Assembly: GCA_023265925.1 (NCBI GenBank)
Contig: JAHFSD010000002.1
Coordinates: 2,569-66,568 of the forward strand
DNA length: 64,000 nucleotides
Direction of reading: 5' to 3'
Source of the DNA: an archaeon
Lineage (GTDB): Archaea > Nanobdellota > Nanobdellia > Woesearchaeales > GW2011-AR9
Notes under the pieces: generated by a model
Databases searched by the model: none
Told to the model about the DNA's origin: nothing
What the model saw: only the letters and a program-made list of their open reading frames with translations
Shown here: positions 9,183 through 50,226 of the stretch, piece by piece
Position numbering within the stretch: position 1 is the stretch's first letter
Layout: each line of letters starts with the position of its first letter
Made by a program: the position numbers and the translations under genes

Positions 9183-10226
9183 ATGAAAAAGGCTATCATC
9201 ACCGGCGGAGCAGGATTTATCGGATCGCATTTGGTAGAATTATTGCTCCAGGAAGGCTTTACCGTGATTGTTCTGGATAATATGTCCAACGGGCAGTTAG
9301 ATAATGTAGAGTTGTTTAAAGATAATCCACGATATCACTTCTATCAGGTTAATTTGGCAGAAGAATTCGATGACTCTGTTTTTAAGGATATAGATTATGT
9401 CTTCCACCTCGCTGCTTTAGCCGATATTGTCCCTTCCATTGACGAGCCGTTCAAGTATCATCAAGCCAACGTCACGGCCACGATTCGCGTTCTGGAAGCC
9501 TGCCGGAAATATGGCGTAAAAAAGTTAGTATATAGTGCCTCTAATTCCTGCTACGGAATTCCTGACTCCTATCCCACTCCGGAGACGGCGGAAATCAAGC
9601 CGGAATATCCTTATGCCTTTATGAAAGCCATTGCCGAGCAGTATGTGCTGTTCTGGGGCAAAGTGTACAACATTCCCGTAATCTCCCTGCGCTATTTTAA
9701 TGTCTTTGGAACGAGAGCAAGAACGAATAATACCTATGGAGCCGTGTTTAAAGTCTTCCTGACCCAGAAACTGCATGACCAGCCGTTAACGATTGTCGGT
9801 GATGGCAGGCAAACTCGTGATTTTACGTACGTCACGGATATTGCTCGGGCCAATTTACTGGCGGCCGAATCAGAGATACAGGGAGAAATTATCAACATCG
9901 CGACGGGGAAACCACAGTCAGTTAATTATCTCGCCCAGTTAATTGGCGGTTCCACCGTGAGTATTCCCCGGCGTCCTGGAGAGCCTGATTCGACGCATGC
10001 GGATATTTCCAAAGCCAAAGCGCTTTTAGGATGGGAACCAGAAGTTTCCTTTGAAGAAGGCGTAAAAATCATGCTGGAAAATATTGACTATTGGCGAACG
10101 GCGCCATTATGGAATTCTGAATCTATCGGGAAAGCGACGGAAAACTGGTTTCGATATCTTGCTAAAGAAAATCCTACCAAGGGAAATACTGCCAGAGAAA
10201 ATACTGCCGGAGGAAACGATGAGTAA
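9183..10226 (+). CDS. NAD-dependent nucleotide-sugar epimerase/dehydratase (extended SDR)
   Basis: ITGGAGFIGSHLVELLL Rossmann motif and YxxxK-type SDR. Start set at MKKAIITGG. Confidence 0.8.
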   Translation: MKKAIITGGAGFIGSHLVELLLQEGFTVIVLDNMSNGQLDNVELFKDNPRYHFYQVNLAEEFDDSVFKDIDYVFHLAALADIVPSIDEPFKYHQANVTATIRVLEACRKYGVKKLVYSASNSCYGIPDSYPTPETAEIKPEYPYAFMKAIAEQYVLFWGKVYNIPVISLRYFNVFGTRARTNNTYGAVFKVFLTQKLHDQPLTIVGDGRQTRDFTYVTDIARANLLAAESEIQGEIINIATGKPQSVNYLAQLIGGSTVSIPRRPGEPDSTHADISKAKALLGWEPEVSFEEGVKIMLENIDYWRTAPLWNSESIGKATENWFRYLAKENPTKGNTARENTAGGNDE

Positions 10227-12974: not shown

Positions 12975-13217
12975 TCACAGCACACGAGCAACTGCGGTTG
13001 CTGGGGTTGCTTATCAGCAACAGCTGTGGTGATTTTTAGTGCAAGACGGGATAGTTTTCCCGTCTGCACAGAAAACAAATCGCTGTTTGTTTTCTTGTGT
13101 TTGTTGGGGAATTTATGCTTTTCACTGCAAGCAGTGGGGTTTTAGACCCAACAAACAAATAAAAAACAATGGAAAAGAAAGTCCCGTAATCTAAATTAAT
13201 CAGAATCAAAAATAACC

Positions 13218-19725: not shown

Positions 19726-19842
19726 CTCTTTTCTTGATTATAGGGATAAGCAGGAGTAAGTAAGAGCGAGGGTTTCCGAAACGTTCCCGGGAAAAAGCAC
19801 TTTTTAAATGTTGTTAATTAAAAATCCAGGTTTACCCGACTT

Positions 19843-20964
19843 TTGCGTTTTATACCAACAGACATAAATAACCATGCCGGAATGATTTTTCTCCCGGGAA
19901 CGCAAAAATGTGACAAAAATGTGAGTTTAATAAGACTTATAAAGTCACTATCAAGTTTTAGAAGTATGCCTTTAATACCAGTTGGTAAGGGAGACTTCCG
20001 CCTCCTGCCACAATTTGCTGAGGGAGATTTTCCGGGTTATGAGTTGTATCTTCCTGAATTTGATGATAAGGTGTATAACTGTCTGGAAGCTCTTCCGGGC
20101 CATATTAAGATAATTTCTATCCATCAGCCGCCTAGTGTGCGTGTCGATGGCCAACTCCATAGGTCAAACATGGTGAACTTTGGAAGAATTGGTGAAGCAA
20201 CTGTCTTCTCTATGAAAAAAATAGTAGAATTATGCCATCAGCGGGGTATCCCTCAAGTGGTGGTTCATGGCGCTTTTTATGATTGCCGAGAGAGGGAGCA
20301 GCAGGAAGCTTTTTCATTGTTTACCAGCAGGTTGAAAAGTTTATCCCATCCAGAAGTGGAATTGTTGTGTGAAAATGATGCTTTGTGGGGACCGGATCAT
20401 TATTCAATCCACTCGCTATTATGTACCATGGAAAATTTTTTGTTGCTAAATAAGCTGATGGATGGAAAAATCAAGATAACGCTCGACATTGAACATTTTT
20501 TGATCACGCACTATTTTACTCGCTTTCTTGGTTCCATCACCGCCAGGGACACGGACTTTTATGTAGGATCTGAGGAAAGAGGAGAGCTTTTACAAAAGGA
20601 TTTTCTCTCTTTTCATGCTCCTCAGGAAAATGTGCTAAAGCAAACTTTATACAGTTCTCTTGGCCAATTCATCAGTTTCTTTAATGACCAGATTGAGATG
20701 GTGCACTTAAATGGCTCTGATTTTCATAATTTTATGTTTGATGCAGGGAAAAAGCTTCCGCTGATCGGAGAGCATTTGCCTCTGGGCTTTGACCAGGGGG
20801 GAGTTAAGGACAGGATTGATTATGGTTTATTGGTAGTGGCACTCCAGAAGCTGCCTCATCATAAAAATATCCCTCTGGTGCTGGAAGTGTGGAGAAAAGA
20901 TCCAGGGGAATTCATTGCAGAAATGCGGCGGTCAAAACAATTTTTAACAAACTATTTAAGCTAG
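19843..20964 (+). CDS. hypothetical protein, possibly xylose-isomerase-like TIM-barrel (sugar phosphate isomerase/epimerase) fold
   Basis: Weak pattern only (IISIHQPP, VVVHGAF, LDIEHF, VHLNGS). Real start may be Met at 19966. Confidence 0.3.
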   Translation: MRFIPTDINNHAGMIFLPGTQKCDKNVSLIRLIKSLSSFRSMPLIPVGKGDFRLLPQFAEGDFPGYELYLPEFDDKVYNCLEALPGHIKIISIHQPPSVRVDGQLHRSNMVNFGRIGEATVFSMKKIVELCHQRGIPQVVVHGAFYDCREREQQEAFSLFTSRLKSLSHPEVELLCENDALWGPDHYSIHSLLCTMENFLLLNKLMDGKIKITLDIEHFLITHYFTRFLGSITARDTDFYVGSEERGELLQKDFLSFHAPQENVLKQTLYSSLGQFISFFNDQIEMVHLNGSDFHNFMFDAGKKLPLIGEHLPLGFDQGGVKDRIDYGLLVVALQKLPHHKNIPLVLEVWRKDPGEFIAEMRRSKQFLTNYLS

Positions 20965-22111: not shown

Positions 22112-22339
22112 ATGACTCCAGAAGCAATCTTATCCGAAGAGCGCGCAGCACAGCTCATTGAAAGGTGCACTGATTATCAGATAGAATCCATCCAGCTCAT
22201 TCCTGAAGGGGGTAGCCATTACAGTTTTAACTTGGTCTGCTCAGGTTACCCCCTTCAGGAACTCGGGATGGACTTCGTGATCTGTGGAGTGAAAAATTCA
22301 AGGAGTTACTCTTTAAAATCATTGTTAGTGGAACCGTAG
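22112..22339 (+). CDS. small hypothetical protein
   Basis: 75-aa ORF between neuB-like and neuA-like genes; no motif. Confidence 0.2.
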   Translation: MTPEAILSEERAAQLIERCTDYQIESIQLIPEGGSHYSFNLVCSGYPLQELGMDFVICGVKNSRSYSLKSLLVEP

Positions 22340-25042: not shown

Positions 25043-25135
25043 GGAACTATGTAATTATTCAGCCATCTGAAGCGTGGTGAGCATCATAACCTTAGGACGG
25101 GGGCGCTTCACGTGGCTGAATAATTACGGAACTAT
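25043..25135. mobile_element. MITE-like element: 24-bp near-perfect terminal inverted repeats (22/24) with a 29-bp spacer, flanked by 8-bp direct repeats (ggaactat)
   Basis: Arm1 25051-25074 gtaattattcagccatctgaagcg; arm2 25104-25127 cgcttcacgtggctgaataattac; DRs 25043-25050 and 25128-25135. Confidence 0.4.
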
Positions 25136-40365: not shown

Positions 40366-42183
40366 TTAAAGCTGATAGAGAATATCTTCCATCGGCTGCC
40401 GGTACAATGGCTCATTCAGCCGTTTCTGGTCTAAGATATGCCCAATCAGGCCAATGCTTCTGGCCAGGGCAAAGAGGCCGTTCATGTATCCTATTTCCAG
40501 AATCTCCTTGATTTCTTCGTTGGCGAATTTTCCAGAACTGACTAAAGCGTCCACAAACAACACACCAATACACCCATCCACATTAAGGATTAAGTTTTCT
40601 GCCTTCTGCAGTGTGATTTTTTCCACTTCCAACGCGTAGTTGAGATACGTTGTTTTGGGAAAATTCTTTTGGGAAAATTGTTTTAGCAATTCCACCCTCT
40701 TATCCGGATTCCTCTTGGATTTAATCCGATGCCCGATACCAGGGATGAGCAGGCCTTTTTTCTTCATCTCTTCCACAAAATTAGTAGGATCCTGCTTTTT
40801 ATCACCAGCCTCATGGAAGTAACGGGCCGCATCATCAATCGCCCCGCCAAATCGTGGCCCGATCGTCAGCAGGCCGCTGCATAAAGCAGAGATAACATCT
40901 TTTCCTGCTCTCGCGGCAACTATCGCATTATGCGCTCCTGAAACAGCGGGACCATGATCGGCACAGAGGAGAATAGATAGCTCCAGGAATTTGGTGAAGT
41001 AGGTCGGCAGTTTTTTCTTGAACCAGAGCAGGGCAATGACCTCCCCTACCGAATAATTCTGTTCAATGATCTCACTCATCGGAATCGTCCCATACGTGGG
41101 CTCTTCACCAATATCTGAAGAAATGGTAGTGGTAAATTGAGTTTGTTTTCGCACCAGCCCTTGCGCGACCGCCTCGTTATAGTCTAATGGCATTCCCGGA
41201 GGATTGATTTCTTCTTTTGCCGGCAGGTTTAATGATAAAAATGTTTTCTTGATGGTCTTTTCCAACTCTTCAAACGAATCGGGGACAATAATCCCTGCTT
41301 CCCTCAGCGCCTTATTTTTCGCTTCCGCGCTTTCTTCTTCCTTTCCGGCCTTGGCGCCAGCATGGCCAAACTGCACTTCCCAGGGAAAAATCGAGGCAGA
41401 GGTTCCTGAAACCAAGATCACCAACGGCTTGGTTAATTTTCCTTCCCGTTTTGCCTTGATGATCTCATATTCGTCCTTTCCACCCAGTTCGCTCAGGGCA
41501 ACCAGCAGCTTAATATCCGGGTTAGCTTCATAGCGCCGCAGGTGATCTAACAACGTTGAGCCGGGATAGGCATCGCCGCCAATGGCAATTCCTTCATTAA
41601 TGCCATCCGTTGTCCTGGCAATGATATTAAACAGCTCATTCATCATCCCGCCAGACTTGGAGACCAAGCCAACACTGCCCGGGCGGTAGAGTTTTGCCTT
41701 CAGGATATTTTCCATCAAACCGCCGGCATGGCCTATCCGGAATTGGCCGGCGATAATGCCGCCCACGGTAGCGGGGCCAATGATCCATTTATTTTTTTGC
41801 CTGGCGAGGGCAATCAGTTCTTTGGCCTGCCGTTCGGGAAGGCCTTCGGCAACGATGACAACGGTGTTGATAGTTGGCGATTCCAGCGCTTCCTTAGAGG
41901 AAGAATAGGCCGAGCGAAAGGAGGCAAAGTTAATTAACACGTCTGCCACAGGGTGTTTTGTGGTTGCATCCTGTAAAGTTGAGTAAATGGGAAGAATTAT
42001 TTCCTTGCTGCCAAAAAAGGCTTTATGGAATCCTTTCCGTCCGGGATGGATTATTCCGGCCAAGCTGGGCTTTGCCTTCCGGCAGATAAAATCATAATCG
42101 AGCATCTGCTGTAGTGGAAGAGGTTTTAGGTTGTAGAAGAACGCTTCCGTGCTCCGGGTGAAGAGGTGGGGGGGGTTGTTCAT
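40366..42183 (-). CDS. aclA: ATP-citrate lyase large subunit AclA (CoA-binding/SucD-like + citrate-synthase-like domains)
   Basis: SVGLVSKSGGMMNELFNII and C-terminal IPGIGHRIKSKRNPDKRVELL (GHR motif as in ACLY). Confidence 0.75.
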   Translation of the reverse strand: MNNPPHLFTRSTEAFFYNLKPLPLQQMLDYDFICRKAKPSLAGIIHPGRKGFHKAFFGSKEIILPIYSTLQDATTKHPVADVLINFASFRSAYSSSKEALESPTINTVVIVAEGLPERQAKELIALARQKNKWIIGPATVGGIIAGQFRIGHAGGLMENILKAKLYRPGSVGLVSKSGGMMNELFNIIARTTDGINEGIAIGGDAYPGSTLLDHLRRYEANPDIKLLVALSELGGKDEYEIIKAKREGKLTKPLVILVSGTSASIFPWEVQFGHAGAKAGKEEESAEAKNKALREAGIIVPDSFEELEKTIKKTFLSLNLPAKEEINPPGMPLDYNEAVAQGLVRKQTQFTTTISSDIGEEPTYGTIPMSEIIEQNYSVGEVIALLWFKKKLPTYFTKFLELSILLCADHGPAVSGAHNAIVAARAGKDVISALCSGLLTIGPRFGGAIDDAARYFHEAGDKKQDPTNFVEEMKKKGLLIPGIGHRIKSKRNPDKRVELLKQFSQKNFPKTTYLNYALEVEKITLQKAENLILNVDGCIGVLFVDALVSSGKFANEEIKEILEIGYMNGLFALARSIGLIGHILDQKRLNEPLYRQPMEDILYQL

Positions 42184-42190
42184 GGGTTTT

Positions 42191-42901
42191 TTATTTTGGT
42201 CGTCGTAGTGTGATCAGCCACTCTTCTGAATTGGATTCAAGATGTTCTACTATTTTCTGGGCAACAAACTGCGGATCCATAAATTCCTCCATTTTTCGTC
42301 CCGGTTGTCTTCGGAAGAGTTCTGTCTTCATCCCGCCCGGATTGAAGCAGGTAACGTTGATTCCCGTTCCTTGCAGTTCTGTTCTCAACGAGCCGCTAAA
42401 ACCAACTAGCGCTGATTTGGAAGAGCCATAGGCAATATGACTGGTTTTGTAATCCAATGCAGAGGTGGAACCAATGTTGATAATATGGCCAGAGCCTTGC
42501 TTTTTCATAACTGTTACTGCTGCCTGTGCACAGAAAATGGGGCCAAAGACGTTTGTTCTATAGGTATCCAGAAGCTCTTCTTCGGCAATTCCTTCCAGCG
42601 GAGTAAGTTTGTGCAAAACACCAGCGTTGTTAATCAGCAGATCCAGCCGACCAAAGCGTTTTACTCCCTGTTCTATGAGCCGATAGCAATTTTCTTTCTT
42701 CTGTACATCCATTACTACTGCTTCTACCTCCGTGAAGTTTTTCATTTTTTCTGCAAAGGCATTTAATTTTTCTTTATCCCTTCCTCCCAGAACAAGGGCA
42801 TAGCCTTTCTTTGCCAGTAATTCAGATAGCGCTGCACCTAGCCCACTATACACCCCTGTTATAGCCGCAACTTTCTTATCTTTCATCATGGTCATTTCCA
42901 A
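42191..42901 (-). CDS. short-chain dehydrogenase/reductase (classical SDR)
   Basis: AAITGVYSGLGAALSELLAKKG; NNAGV; YGSSK. Confidence 0.75.
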   Translation of the reverse strand: MEMTMMKDKKVAAITGVYSGLGAALSELLAKKGYALVLGGRDKEKLNAFAEKMKNFTEVEAVVMDVQKKENCYRLIEQGVKRFGRLDLLINNAGVLHKLTPLEGIAEEELLDTYRTNVFGPIFCAQAAVTVMKKQGSGHIINIGSTSALDYKTSHIAYGSSKSALVGFSGSLRTELQGTGINVTCFNPGGMKTELFRRQPGRKMEEFMDPQFVAQKIVEHLESNSEEWLITLRRPK

Positions 42902-44143
42902 TCACCTCACTTTCTCCATCGCCTTCGGCACCATCATTGTCATCGGCATTTCCGGCCCAGAGACTTCCATCGGAATCCTGAGTTCTAAGCCCGTTCTTTT
43001 CATCAATTCCAAACCCTTCTCCCAATTCGGCCCGCCTCTCCGTACAAAGATAGACACTTTTCCTGCTCGCAACTTTTCCTGATATTCCCGCAGGGCCCTG
43101 ACGACGCCCGTAAACGTCTTCTCCACATCGGTAAAATTGGCAATCGCTCCTGCTATGAACAATATCTTCCCACCGGGAATGCTGGGGCTCCGCGTCATGG
43201 CGTCCAGCACCGTCTTCGCATACTGATACGATTCCTCCGTTGTCGGATTGCCGCTGTATTCCCCATAGTTAGCGATGCTTCCGGCCTGGCCATGATTGGC
43301 AATGGCATCTAAATATATAATGCTGGCTCCGCCTCCAGAAAGAATGTTCCAGATTCTTCCCTGCGGATTGAGCACCGTTAATTTGAGGGAAGCACCACTC
43401 TCCTCATCGAGTTTAGCAATATAATCTTCTTCCGGAAAAGATTTCCGGCCGAATGGCGGGGGAAAGGGAAGATCACCCCATCGTTTCCCATTCCTGAATT
43501 GGGCACAATCGTCCACTTCCGCGACGGTGTCAAGAAGGATGACCTGGCCCTGCTGATCCAGGGTGAAAGGATTAAATTCCAGATAGGTAAAATCCAAATC
43601 CCGATAGAGCTGAAAAATCGCTTTTACAAAGGGCTGGAGTTGCTCGGGAATTCTATTATCTAAATCTACCTCCTCTTGGAGCGTGGGGACGGCGATCTTC
43701 TGTACCTTATCCCACTGCTCTTCAATGTCCATCCCCCCCTGCAGGGAAAAGTGGATGATGTCGTGGTCTCGCTCGGAAGTTATCGCCAGATAATACTCTT
43801 CCTGATGGGAAATGTATGGCTCAATCAGGAAATGGGTAAGCCTGTCCGTCACCGTACCGATAGTTACTTCCTTATTGTGGTATTCTTTCAGCCACCGTAC
43901 TGCTTCCTCCCATCCTGCCTCCAGCAGCACCAAGCCCAGCTTTTTCCTCTTCCCGAAAAGCTGATCAGGCTTAACCACCAATTTCGTCCTGGAAAGCCAG
44001 GGATAGTGCTGGGGAAGGTTTTCCAAGCTTGTTTCAGGACCGATTAAAACAGCGTTATTGATAAGATTAACCTTTCCATATTGTAGGATATTATCTGCTA
44101 TGATTCGTTTAGCATCAAATTCACGTATCTTACGGCGTCCCAT
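42902..44143 (-). CDS. aclB: ATP-citrate lyase small subunit AclB (ATP-grasp/SucC-like)
   Basis: N-terminal REFDAKRIIADN; 413 aa, matching AclB architecture. Confidence 0.7.
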   Translation of the reverse strand: MGRRKIREFDAKRIIADNILQYGKVNLINNAVLIGPETSLENLPQHYPWLSRTKLVVKPDQLFGKRKKLGLVLLEAGWEEAVRWLKEYHNKEVTIGTVTDRLTHFLIEPYISHQEEYYLAITSERDHDIIHFSLQGGMDIEEQWDKVQKIAVPTLQEEVDLDNRIPEQLQPFVKAIFQLYRDLDFTYLEFNPFTLDQQGQVILLDTVAEVDDCAQFRNGKRWGDLPFPPPFGRKSFPEEDYIAKLDEESGASLKLTVLNPQGRIWNILSGGGASIIYLDAIANHGQAGSIANYGEYSGNPTTEESYQYAKTVLDAMTRSPSIPGGKILFIAGAIANFTDVEKTFTGVVRALREYQEKLRAGKVSIFVRRGGPNWEKGLELMKRTGLELRIPMEVSGPEMPMTMMVPKAMEKVR

Positions 44144-44288: not shown

Positions 44289-45227
44289 GTGTTGACCATG
44301 AAAAAAATAGTTCTCTTACCGTTATTGACATTGCTAGCAGTCGCGGTCTTGTTCATTGCGGCCTGTGCGCCGGGGAAGGCAACAGCGGGGCAGGCTACTG
44401 GTGGACGTGGTGGTGGTTCGGATACTGTAGTACTAGCTGATGTAGGAAGTTGTTCCAGCACTATTACCGGAATAGAGGGAGATAAAAAAAATGGGGATAA
44501 GTTCACCTATACTAATGATTGTAAGAGCAATAGTATGGTAAATAAATATTACTGTACCACAGATAAGGCTACCAAAAGAAATGCTGTAAGAAAAAGTACT
44601 TTTTCCTGTACTAATACTCAAGTATGTCAGAATGGAGCTTGTGTGGCAACAGCACCGCCAGCAGCAGTCTGCGGTAACAAGGTCAGAGAAGGCTCCGAAG
44701 TCTGTGATGGTACTGATTTAGGAGGGTTCACTTGTACCGCCGGACTGAAAGATCCCGGAGCAACGGGGACGCTCGGCTGTAAGTCTGACTGTACAGCGTT
44801 TGATACGAGTGGATGTGTGGCATCGGAAACTCCTCTTGAGGTAACGCCGGTTGTTCAGGCTCAGGAATTTTGTGATGGCGTAGATAATAATAATAATGGA
44901 GTAATTGATGACGGTTGTGATGCTGATAATGATGGGTTTTGTAAGGCTGGTTTACTGAAAAAAGACACTTACTACAATTGCGGTGCTTTGGCGAATGATC
45001 CCAGTATGGATTGGAAGAATGACCCCAATAATGAGTGTTGTCCTTGGGGTGAAGGTCCTCAATCACCTCAAACCCCCCCTGATTGTGACGATACAAATGG
45101 AGCGGTAAGACCAAATGCAGGTGAAGTGTGTGCCAATAGTATCGATGACAATTGTAATGGGCAGATCGATGAGGTTGCTTGTCCAGCAATAGTAGATCAA
45201 ACTGGCAATAAAAGCAACACCACTTAA
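44289..45227 (+). CDS. secreted/lipoprotein, Cys-rich with MopE-like putative metal-binding repeats
   Basis: Signal peptide MKKIVLLPLLTLLAVAVLFIAAC. Repeats CDGVDNNNNGVIDDGCDADNDGFC and DDNCNGQIDE (CxDxDNDCDGxIDE pattern). Confidence 0.5.
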   Translation: MLTMKKIVLLPLLTLLAVAVLFIAACAPGKATAGQATGGRGGGSDTVVLADVGSCSSTITGIEGDKKNGDKFTYTNDCKSNSMVNKYYCTTDKATKRNAVRKSTFSCTNTQVCQNGACVATAPPAAVCGNKVREGSEVCDGTDLGGFTCTAGLKDPGATGTLGCKSDCTAFDTSGCVASETPLEVTPVVQAQEFCDGVDNNNNGVIDDGCDADNDGFCKAGLLKKDTYYNCGALANDPSMDWKNDPNNECCPWGEGPQSPQTPPDCDDTNGAVRPNAGEVCANSIDDNCNGQIDEVACPAIVDQTGNKSNTT

Positions 45228-45286
45228 TTTTTCCTTTTTTTTCCTTTCCCTTTTTCATCTTCTTCATTTTCTCTCAGAACAGAATG

Positions 45287-45309
45287 CCCCCTGGCAAACT
45301 CTGTGGAAA
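45287..45309 (+). repeat. 23-bp direct repeat, left copy (ccccctggcaaactctgtggaaa)
   Basis: Identical 23-mer recurs at 45668-45690. Confidence 0.7.
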
Positions 45310-45331
45310 GGAAGCGCTTCTGGTGGTATAG

Positions 45332-45520
45332 AGAACTGCGCAATTTAGATCACATTTGTGCGCAGTTCTAATCTGGTAAACTGCGTGTCGAAGTCTACAC
45401 TTTTGCGTTTCTGAGAGAATCAATCGCCGCAAAAGTGTAGATTACGAGGCTTTTGCCTAATCAGATATAAAACGCAAAAGTCGAGGAAGTGTGACATAAG
45501 CTACGCAGTTTACCATAGCA
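45332..45520 (+). repeat. structured repeat element, copy 2 (same two hairpins as 2847-2940, perfect stems, plus a nested ~100-nt insertion carrying a 13-bp perfect hairpin at 45395-45440)
   Basis: Stems 45332-45341/45360-45369 and 45375-45386/45503-45514. Inserted hairpin ctacacttttgcg/cgcaaaagtgtag. Confidence 0.55.
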
Positions 45521-45667
45521 GAGATTGAAGGGAGTAAGGCTGCCCCCAGGCAGATATTCCTCATTGCTTCCTCTGATCATGTTGTAGTCTAAATGCTTGA
45601 GAATAACGAGAACTTTCTCTTCGACGTGTTCTTCGGTTATGAGGTGTTTCCTGTCCTGATTTTTCCA

Positions 45668-45690
45668 CCCCCTGGCAAACTCTGTGGAAA
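45668..45690 (+). repeat. 23-bp direct repeat, right copy
   Basis: Identical to 45287-45309; 381 bp apart. Confidence 0.7.
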
Positions 45691-45925
45691 AGAGCGTTTT
45701 ACTAACCCAAACAGAAACTATTCCAGTGGTGGAGTGCGCCCCTAAAGGTAGACAAATAGTTAAGATTCAACTTTTGCGGTTTTTAGCATAGCCCACCTGG
45801 TTGGTGCTGGGAAGAACAGATGTGCAGCTGACTTTGAAAAGGCAGTTGGATGGGTTTGTTCGGTAAGCCAAGAAAACGTTTCCTTATTTCCGCCAACAAT
45901 CTTTTTATAGTAACCTCGTTTTAAG

Positions 45926-46783
45926 TTGGTGATGATGAATCCAAAAAATCGCCTTAATGACCTCTCCGCCCAGGACTGGCTGCGCTTTACCAAAACCTGG
46001 TTCATCCATAATCCTCCCCGCCGGAAAAAGAGTGAATTACTGCATCCGGCAAAATATCCGGAAGATCTGATTGCTGAATTCATCCAATTCTTTACCAAGC
46101 CTGGCCAGATTGTGTTTGATCCATTTCTGGGAACGGGAAGTACCCTGGTGGCCTGCCATACGACGGGGAGAAATGGGATTGGCATCGAACTGCAGAAAAA
46201 ATATGCCGACATCGCCCGGCAGCGAATTCAGCAGCTCGAGTCGCAGCAGAAATTGGCACCGGACGGAAGTAAACAAGTATGCCGGCAGTTGGTGCTGCAG
46301 GGAAATAGTGCAGAATTAGAAAAGATGTGGACAAGCCATTCCCTACCGGAAGTGGATTTCGTCATTACCTCTCCTCCCTATGGACCGATGCTGAATAAAA
46401 AAGGATTAGCGACGCAGGAACGGGAGGAAGCAGGTCTCGATGTTAAATACAGTGACGATGCGGAAGATCTCGGGAATGCCGCAAGTTATCAAGAATTTGT
46501 ACAGCGATTGGTTGATATTTTCCGGAAGATCAAGCTGAAATTAAAACCAGAAGGATATCTGGTCGTCATCCTGCAGAATTACATGGATAAAGGAGAATAT
46601 CAGACCTTAGCCTGGGATGTGGGAAAAGAATTGGGAAAACATTTCCAGCTGCGCGGCGAGAGAATCTGGCTACAGGACAATAAGACGCTTTACCCTTACG
46701 GTTATCGCTACAGCTTTGTGCCCAATGTACATCATCATTATTGCTTGATTTTTAAGAAAGTTGGTTTCAAAGAAGTGGATTAA
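45926..46783 (+). CDS. N4-cytosine/N6-adenine DNA methyltransferase (N6_N4_Mtase family) with permuted motif order; orphan
   Basis: HPAKYPEDL...VFDPFLGTGST (motifs X-I) lies N-terminal to VITSPPYG (motif IV). No restriction enzyme adjacent. Confidence 0.6.
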   Translation: MVMMNPKNRLNDLSAQDWLRFTKTWFIHNPPRRKKSELLHPAKYPEDLIAEFIQFFTKPGQIVFDPFLGTGSTLVACHTTGRNGIGIELQKKYADIARQRIQQLESQQKLAPDGSKQVCRQLVLQGNSAELEKMWTSHSLPEVDFVITSPPYGPMLNKKGLATQEREEAGLDVKYSDDAEDLGNAASYQEFVQRLVDIFRKIKLKLKPEGYLVVILQNYMDKGEYQTLAWDVGKELGKHFQLRGERIWLQDNKTLYPYGYRYSFVPNVHHHYCLIFKKVGFKEVD

Positions 46784-46942
46784 GTAATTTTAGGATTTAA
46801 AAGAGGTCTTTCTTTCAGTTTCCGTCCTTTTCCTGCAGTTAGTTCTGGCCGGGATTTTTCTAATCGAAATTTTGATAATCGGGACTGCAGTTCCGTCTCC
46901 AGGATAAAAGAACTTCCAAGAACTTTCTCCCTGAAATAGAAT

Positions 46943-47203
46943 TCACCGAAATGAAATGATCTGTAACCCATACTTTTCCACGTCCTCTTTTGGCCAGAAT
47001 TTCACCTCGCTGGTTTTCAGGACAAAAGTTACTTCCTTTTCCATCATCCTGCCGGTATACTGTTTCATCGTAGGATCCCATTCCTTAAGCACCAGAACGT
47101 CTCCCGATCGGCATTCAAAATCCGCCAGGCGCAGTTCATACTTCTTCTCTCCCCGGAGAATCCGTTCAAAAAATTCCGGCCAGACTTTTTTTTCAATTTT
47201 CAT
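46943..47203 (-). CDS. ASCH-like (DUF3850-type) small protein
   Basis: MKIEKKVWPEFFERILRGEKKYELRLADFECRSGDVLVLKEWD resembles the DUF3850/ASCH N-terminus. Confidence 0.45.
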   Translation of the reverse strand: MKIEKKVWPEFFERILRGEKKYELRLADFECRSGDVLVLKEWDPTMKQYTGRMMEKEVTFVLKTSEVKFWPKEDVEKYGLQIISFR

Positions 47204-49590: not shown

Positions 49591-49988
49591 GCCTTGAGAA
49601 ATATTCTTTTATATTTAAAGGTTGGTGACGATAGATTCTCCCTAATCATCGGCATAGGCCTGTTTAATCGTTGTAAGTAGTTGAAATTTCTTTCCTAATT
49701 TTAATTTTATCTTTGCCCTTTCAGCTGCTCTTACACTTTCGGCAGATAAAGCGTTGCTTTTTACCACATTGGTTATAGCGGAATCCCGCTCTCACAATAT
49801 TCTCAAACGATTTACAAAAGATACAGGGCGTTTTCATATCCATCACCAGGTTAAAGAAAAGAAGTACTTATATCTAAATATGCTTAAGATTAAACGGTGT
49901 CACTCCGGCGCAATCTTTATAAACCACCCCCTGTCCCTAGCACAAATCCGTTATCACACTGGCCAGCAGGACTGGTTTATTGATATAG

Positions 49989-50076
49989 AGAATTCCGCTA
50001 ATTGAGTGACATATTGGCGGAATTCTTATATAGTCAATTCCGAAAAGGATGTAACCTAATAATCGGAATTGACTAT
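49989..50076 (+). other. two adjacent perfect hairpins (10-bp and 14-bp stems, 18-19-nt loops) sharing a gaattcc core; candidate sRNA/regulatory element about 150 nt upstream of rpl3
   Basis: 49989-49998/50017-50026 and 50030-50043/50063-50076. Confidence 0.4.
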
Positions 50077-50226
50077 ACCGGTGAGCTGCCTGCAAAGGCA
50101 ACCATCCTTGGTGTTCTGGGATGGAAGCCAGATAAAGGCAATTTGTACGAGTACCGTATCAATTGGCTTGGGCAACGAGATAAATATAGATGAGATAATT
50201 ATAGTATAGAATAGAGTATTATACAA

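Follow-up and report, generated by a model that had tools for sequence, protein, structure and literature searches.

We found that the window, by which we mean the whole 64,000-nt stretch of DNA that was analysed, contains a palindromic repeat of about 95 nt (the host element), and that one copy of this repeat is interrupted by a 91-nt module of another kind. The two are probably mobile DNA repeats, short, palindromic and non-coding, from families that are not related to each other, and one became nested in the other by non-autonomous transposition. The window is archaeal, as it encodes the ribosomal proteins S4e and L32e, and the closest relatives of its L3 and ferredoxin (72-76% identical) are named Woesearchaeota or Nanoarchaeia.

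The nested module in copy 2 of the host element

Copy 2 of the host element lies at 45327-45517 (+ strand) and consists of 95 nt plus a 96-nt insertion. A TATAG tag (45327-45331) is followed by hairpin 1 (45332-45342 / 45359-45369), a perfect 11-bp stem (AGAACTGCGCA / TGCGCAGTTCT) with a loop of 16 nt, by the linker CTAATCT, of which AATC is the stretch between the perfect stems, and by hairpin 2 (45374-45386 / 45503-45515), a perfect 13-bp stem (TGGTAAACTGCGT / ACGCAGTTTACCA) that carries the insertion in its loop; the copy ends 3' in ..CCATA at 45517. Alignment of 45319-45517 with 2834-2936 gave 88-91% identity outside a block present in copy 2 alone, and copy 2 carries 96 bases more than copy 1 (2842-2936), inside the loop of hairpin 2. 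The fold of the 207-nt region reached -77.4 kcal/mol vs -49.1 ± 4.3 in shuffles (z -6.6, 0/200). The first-pass annotation, made from the letters of the DNA, had described copy 2 as a structured element with a nested hairpin insertion and had proposed aligning the two copies as a check; alignment and fold both agree with it, and the two stems are perfect as it had stated, but they measure 11 and 13 bp instead of 10 and 12 bp.

The module occupies 45395-45485 and is bounded by 16-nt terminal inverted repeats (TIRs), CTACACTTTTGCGTTT (45395-45410) and AAACGCAAAAGTCGAG (45470-45485); CTACACTTTTGCGTTT and the reverse complement CTCGACTTTTGCGTTT are identical at 14/16 positions and share a perfect core of 12 nt. 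Directly outside the TIRs stands a direct repeat, GAAGT, to the left (45390-45394) and to the right (45486-45490), which we take as a target-site duplication. GAAGT is single at the matching place in copy 1 of the same genome, and in alignment A5, which comprises 30 full-length host copies (copy 2 and 29 others), the other copies show a single AAAGY, or a variant of it, at this site, none has the duplication, and all 29 lack the 91-nt insert. The chance of a 5-bp match at a fixed junction is about 1 in 1000. Because the exact 5-bp repeat is combined with inverted ends, the junction has the appearance of a cut-and-paste insertion footprint. A duplication footprint had already been suspected in the imperfect repeat gtcgaagt / gtcgaggaagt; the duplication is real, but it is the exact GAAGT, and the imperfect repeat blends it with the module's own terminal repeat (..GTCGAG).

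Within the module there are two hairpins, at 45395-45440 and 45448-45482. The first has the perfect 13-bp stem (45395-45407 / 45428-45440) and 20-nt loop that had been seen earlier, and it extends to 14 bp with the pair T45394-A45441. The second has a 9-bp stem (45448-45456 / 45474-45482) and contains the second CGCAAAAG segment, likewise recognised before, at 45473-45480. Folded alone, the insert gave a z of -4.2. Because its left unit resembles the reverse complement of its right unit (29 identical positions), the module is itself an inverted doublet of two hairpins. It has no ORF and its location is intergenic.

Relatives of the module were found in the window. A diverged relative lies in opposite orientation (- strand) at 19835-19914, in the intergenic region between a DegT gene and a sugar gene; its positions 19837-19854 reproduce the reverse complement of 45466-45483 exactly over 18 nt, and the whole of 19835-19914 shares about 62 identical positions with the inverted module, the ends being kept and the interior diverged. 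A half-relic of the module end, TCAACTTTTGCGGTTTTTA, lies at 45767-45785 (+ strand) and is 84% complementary to 45466-45484. The family thus has three instances within 64 kb, of which these two are degenerate, and the 9-mer ACTTTTGCG occurs 5 times in the window vs 0.6 expected. The first-pass annotation had held that an insert unique in the genome would speak against mobility, and the relatives at 19835-19914 and 45767-45785 show that it is not unique. Neither of them is flanked by a target duplication. No copy was found in 38 loci from other genomes (L001-L038), and phage, plasmid and viral collections gave no match to either the host element or the insert; as far as can be seen, the module family is confined to this genome. 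An 11-nt tandem duplication (AAAAATGTGAC / AAAAATGTGAG) was seen at 19904-19925, at the end of the relic at 19835-19914, and a similar 9-nt duplication (GATAGCCAA / GATAGTCGC) is present in loop 2 of the host copy L026:896-998; both may be excision footprints.

Nesting was not confined to copy 2. The 5' arm of hairpin 2 in a host copy in L002 contains a 49-nt double hairpin (L002:2946-2994, - strand) whose inverted ends are 7 nt long (CCCAAAT/ATTTGGG), and a host copy in L031 contains in its linker a module of 129 nt, a string of four hairpins (L031:1732-1860, - strand). Because no target duplication accompanies either of these modules, more than one insertion mechanism may operate. Part of the L031 module recurs at L031:4277-4306. 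Further short hairpin modules were observed in L035 (- strand, 10080-10165), in L003 near 7000, at L010:8838-8950 and at L033:190-420; recurring types include GGTGCGACGCTTTTGC..GCAAAAGCTCCAGAC and CGAAAAT..ATTTTCG, and some break or truncate host copies. Inside the window, three further strong hairpins at 25051-25127, 22200-22261 and 13090-13165 have arms 24, 18 and 19 nt long with 84-94% complementarity, are intergenic or nearly so and are unrelated in sequence to host or module; a 30-nt direct repeat (25021 / 25106) accompanies the first. Small palindromic repeats seem plentiful in these archaeal genomes.

The surroundings of copy 2 contain another repeat, of 26 nt (CCCCCTGGCAAACTCTGTGGAAA(G/A)GA), at 45287-45312 and 45668-45693. 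Its two copies are 381 nt apart and 96% identical (0.02 expected by chance), they enclose copy 2 plus the spacer behind it, and a related sequence lies at 45541-45552. The first copy sits in an ORF of 15 codons, which again uses the TAG of the TATAG tag as its stop, and the second in a 50-codon ORF (45593-45745). The repeat is absent from the other loci examined and may be a segmental duplication or a third repeat. On the 5' side of copy 2, the window encodes a secreted protein rich in cysteine, with a metal-binding motif of the MopE type (44289-45227), and an ATP-citrate lyase-type subunit (42902-44143, within 40366-44143; Citrate_bind and ATP-grasp domains), which is of note as Woesearchaeota are usually described as metabolically reduced. 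The 3' side (45926-47203) holds a solitary N6/N4 DNA methyltransferase, beside which no restriction enzyme was seen, and on the opposite strand a DUF3850/ASCH protein.

Copies, contexts and structure of the host element

The host element was found in about 40 copies in MAGs of Woesearchaeota/Nanoarchaeia and in groundwater metagenomes. A scan of one genome per species located its core at 5 places, which belong to two Woesearchaeota MAGs and to a third archaeal MAG that is labelled Methanosarcinales, and a degenerate pattern search gave 32 metagenome loci, mainly from groundwater. An HMM search added copy 3 in the window, a tandem second copy in L004 and the interrupted copies in L002 and L031. 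Copy 1 (2842-2936, + strand) is uninterrupted and lies between a B12-radical SAM gene and a ferredoxin gene. Copy 3 (49984-50077, + strand; fold z -9.4) belongs to a diverged subfamily with the core AATTCCG, not AACTGCG, in both hairpins and is located 149 nt upstream of the operon for ribosomal protein L3; the final 22 nt of an unannotated 83-codon ORF (49754-50005) overlap with it, and each hairpin core of the copy contains GAATTC.

All host copies whose position relative to ORFs was determined (38/38) are intergenic. With respect to the flanking genes they occupy all orientation classes, namely (+,+) 13, (-,-) 8, divergent 6 and convergent 5, and their neighbours are unrelated housekeeping, toxin-antitoxin and tRNA genes. 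Copies that are 94-100% identical to each other stand in flanks that are just 20-38% identical. In the window, the spacer between the radical-SAM and ferredoxin genes measures 115 nt and is filled by the 95-nt copy 1, whereas the orthologous genes in four contigs overlap by 23 nt, so that the element is absent there, and another contig from the sample that gave the window has the two genes 1 nt apart; with closest relatives 72-76% identical in protein, this is a comparison of presence and absence and not of an exact junction. Because of the mixed orientations, the unrelated flanks and the absence from orthologous loci, we regard the host element as a dispersed insertion and not as a conserved regulatory region. 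The A-type host sequence is 85-95% conserved among MAGs of different names, which is above expectation for decaying selfish DNA and could mean a function, or a partner protein that constrains the sequence strongly.

The B12-radical SAM gene (669-2846) takes its stop codon, TAG, from the TATAG tag of copy 1 (2842-2846). Past ..MYRNFDY, the C-terminus of its product is wholly unlike that of the orthologues (L039:3900-4070), whose genes overlap the ferredoxin gene, and the insertion of copy 1 seems to have remodelled the end of the gene.

The consensus of the host element reads TATAGAG - [AAyTsCGC] - loop of about 18 nt - [GCGsArTT]CT - AAT(C/A)T in its 5' part and xGTAA[AyTGC] - loop of about 21 nt - [GCArTT]TACxATA in its 3' part, with the linker conserved as CTAAT(C/A)T. 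In alignment A5 the single-stranded TATAG and CTAAT segments are invariant and the stems vary. Over the 30 copies, 98.7% of hairpin 1 and 91.5% of hairpin 2 are paired (88.2% of cells), and the covariation score was 0.243 vs 0.109 in shuffles (0/500). Column 51-94 of hairpin 2, for example, is GC in 12 copies, AU in 9 and CG in 8, and thus has undergone compensatory changes. The cores of both hairpins also shift together among subfamilies (AACTGCG, AATTGCG, AATTCCG; TTTGA in family D). The host structure is therefore under selection.

The left half of the host element and the reverse complement of its right half are identical at 35 of 45-49 positions (L023 and copy 3), loops included. Loops 1 and 2 are complementary (75.6% paired), which is explained by this inverted-repeat relation of the halves. 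In L023 the minimum-free-energy fold is a single long hairpin; as the selected fold the long hairpin was rejected, being worse kept than the two hairpins (columns 4-94, 6-92, 15-83). The left tag reads TATAG and the right one xATA; in the B' and D families the reverse complement of the right tag is TATAG. The two hairpins differ systematically (GAGAA.. in one vs GTAAA.. in the other). Family D (L013, L024, L030, L034:5117-5213 on the - strand, L035:6563-6661 on the - strand) has the same layout, with a TATAGAG start, a CTAAGAA linker and a CTCTATA end, around unrelated stems (GGTTTGA / GGACTTTGAAT) built on TTTGA. In L034 and L035, the family D copy directly abuts a B-type copy, with which it shares TA or TATA.

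Mobilisation and alternative explanations

In the reading that we favour, a 91-bp miniature element of the second family would have transposed into the hairpin 2 loop of copy 2 and duplicated GAAGT, and both elements would be mobilised in trans by transposases encoded elsewhere in the genome, with neither having a cellular function of its own. The inverted ends and the 5-bp duplication point to a DDE-type cut-and-paste enzyme for the insert. The host element could be moved by a TA-duplicating enzyme or by a hairpin-recognising single-strand enzyme (HUH/Y1, RAYT- or IS200-like). No variable target duplication was found in the flanks of host copies, and the left TATA is invariant. The conserved TATA..ATA termini could hide a TA duplication; the junction of families D and B in L035, which shares exactly TATA, fits insertion 3' of TATA without duplication better, and an HUH/Y1-type insertion of this kind is judged the likelier option. 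The cognate enzyme of either element is hypothetical. No transposase was among the 25 commonest Pfam families listed for 149 ORFs neighbouring host copies or, by Pfam, among the window ORFs near copies, and a tblastn search for Y1 proteins with approximate query sequences in 0.37 Mb gave chance matches alone; these searches sampled about 0.4 Mb from many genomes. The first-pass annotation's proposal of a nested mobile module is borne out by the TIRs, the 5-bp duplication, the relatives of the module, its absence from 29 copies and the recurrence of nesting.

Of the alternatives, the one that survives best, though we consider it rather unlikely, is that both elements are hairpin-tagged single-stranded DNA repeats moved by an HUH/Y1 enzyme, in the manner of an archaeal REP/RAYT or an IS200/IS605-PATE-like system; GAAGT would then be the target at the left and an identical cleavage sequence at the right end of the module, and not a duplication. 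Both elements are indeed hairpin doublets with related stems, the outward TATAG stands directly 5' of a stem like the GTAG of REPs (PMC3733652), and the two alternative folds, one long hairpin or two hairpins, are as discussed for REPINs (PMC3116915). The missing variable duplications around host copies, the exact sharing of TATA in L035 and the nested modules of 49 and 129 nt without duplication agree with this alternative as well. However, an exact 5-bp repeat with inverted ends matching at 14/16 positions is the classic cut-and-paste signature, the tag is ATAG and neither GTAG nor CGTC, and no Y1 gene was seen with the approximate queries in 0.37 Mb. Moreover, the REP-associated Y1 subclasses have been reported in bacteria only, the IS200-type being the sole subclass reported in archaea (PMC6006769).

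We consider improbable the reading in which the host element is a non-coding structured RNA that contains the insert as an archaeal intron or as an expansion at the RNA level. The strong predicted folds, the covariation of stems and of loop-loop complementarity, and the invariance of TATAG and CTAAT in spite of varying stems would suit an RNA, as would copy 1, whose + strand has two G.U pairs and the better fold. Over the 30 copies, however, stem mismatches are balanced between G.T (7) and A.C (8), so that neither strand is favoured, and the loop-loop covariation is explained by the inverted-repeat halves. Host copies stand in both orientations to flanking genes, in convergent and divergent spacers too, and Rfam gave 0 matches at gathering thresholds for the whole window and chance matches alone at E up to 10 for 45200-45950. 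At six equivalent junction pairs we found no canonical bulge-helix-bulge, defined as two 3-nt bulges at the junctions with a 4-bp helix between them, nor was one present in the minimum-free-energy fold of the copy 2 region; splicing, moreover, does not account for inverted ends together with a direct duplication. The data fit hairpins that matter in DNA, either single-stranded in transposition or as symmetric binding sites, and not in a functional transcript. The first-pass annotation had spoken of a small mobile or expandable RNA module nested in another; mobility and nesting are upheld, whereas expansion is not, and its RNA reading gives way to the two orientations, the balanced mismatches, the lack of an Rfam match and the signatures of DNA transposition.

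Several narrower candidates were also rejected. A strand-specific RNA was suggested by the G.U pairs of copy 1, but not by the mismatch balance in 30 copies, and a cis-regulatory 5' UTR or riboswitch was ruled out because copies occupy all four orientation classes. The window contains no tRNA or tmRNA. A kissing-loop pseudoknot was dropped, as the covariation of the loops follows from the inverted-repeat halves and is not independent RNA evidence. Integron attC sites, replication-origin boxes, template/variable repeats of a DGR and a sigma-54 promoter were unfit in layout, copy distribution or substitutions.

It is very improbable that the ACTTTTGCG / CGCAAAAGT palindromes are operator sites of a regulator which accumulated in three promoter-proximal spacers, and not parts of a mobile element. 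Every occurrence is intergenic, and those at 19839 and 45770 each precede a + strand gene by 130-160 nt, with T-rich, TATA-like sequence following them, as might be seen with operators; but two inverted pairs stand in the loop of another repeat, where a 5-bp duplication bounds them exactly, and are missing from every other copy of that repeat, and 19835-19914 resembles the insert to both ends, over about 80 nt and thus beyond the 9-mer. A local origin of the extra DNA in copy 2 by slippage, hairpin extension or templated duplication, without transposition, is barely credible, since the 91 inserted bases are unlike the host and yet like a second locus 25 kb away, even if the imperfect repeat gtcgaagt / gtcgaggaagt and the small tandem duplications in related places (11 nt at 19904-19925, 9 nt in L026 loop 2) would suit it.

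Significance and comparison with known systems

Returning to nested, transposed DNA repeats as the preferred reading, the insertion of a miniature repeat into another repeat is ordinary for selfish DNA and a known kind of event; because it is such a routine sign, the nesting that had been flagged changes no picture. The useful by-product may be a well-delimited, structurally constrained superfamily of palindromic doublets of about 95 nt in Woesearchaeota/Nanoarchaeia, which are small-genome DPANN archaea with poorly catalogued repeats. The literature searched contained no description of the host family, and the archaeal repeat family is apparently undescribed. Somewhat speculatively, and with a low expectation of being right, we suggest that the TATAG-tagged doublets are the archaeal counterpart of REPIN populations, long-lived, vertically inherited, and maintained and copied by a domesticated single-strand enzyme (HUH/Y1-like or other) of Woesearchaeota. 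The stems would then co-evolve with the enzyme, which would account for families A, B, C and D and for their concerted changes in the two hairpins, and other miniature elements would land in the exposed loops and linkers. Should a cognate enzyme exist, REP/RAYT-like biology would be extended to archaea. Host repeats can, in addition, break assemblies, mislead RNA-motif screens, supply stop codons (as copy 1 does) and act as strain markers in groundwater metagenomes.

ERIC/IRU elements of enterobacteria are intergenic imperfect palindromes of about 100-130 nt, of which longer variants with internal insertions at specific sites exist; these insertions are not known to be independent elements with target duplications. 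Like them, the host element is intergenic and an imperfect palindrome over its whole length, but it has no sequence relation to them and comes from a different domain of life. IS200/IS605-derived PATEs (palindrome-associated transposable elements), described in haloarchaea, provide an archaeal precedent: the host element is likewise non-coding, has a hairpin near each end and an apparently fixed left flank (TATA), and shows no variable duplication. It differs from PATEs in that no TnpA/TnpB relative was found and that its hairpins nearly reach its ends, and from IS608-type ends in the distances from the hairpin foot to the end.

The nested module resembles MITEs in its TIRs, its 5-bp target-site duplication, which is single in empty sites, its lack of an ORF, its intergenic site and its diverged relatives in the same genome; it differs in that no autonomous partner IS is known, and the host element departs from MITEs in having no variable duplication. 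MITEs have been reported at high density in a Woesearchaea genome (PMC11602168).

The host element shares most with the REP doublets, REPINs and BIMEs that are mobilised by RAYT/TnpA-REP. It is likewise about 100 nt long, extragenic, dispersed and multicopy, and consists of two head-head inverted hairpin units with a short conserved spacer and a conserved unpaired outward tag directly 5' of the stem. It can also fold as two hairpins or as one long hairpin, and its pairing is kept by compensatory changes. This layout, with outward tags and two alternative folds, has been described for REP doublets and REPINs (PMC3116915, PMC3733652), and REP dimers have been found inserted within other palindromes (PMC3733652). 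In contrast to REPs, which are bacterial and species-specific, the host element is archaeal, from a domain in which no REP-associated Y1 is reported (PMC6006769), and is conserved across several MAGs, and its two hairpins are systematically unlike (GAGAA.. vs GTAAA..). Because its tag is (T)ATAG and not the GTAG or CGTC of REPs, the host element behaves like a REP doublet without being classifiable as one.
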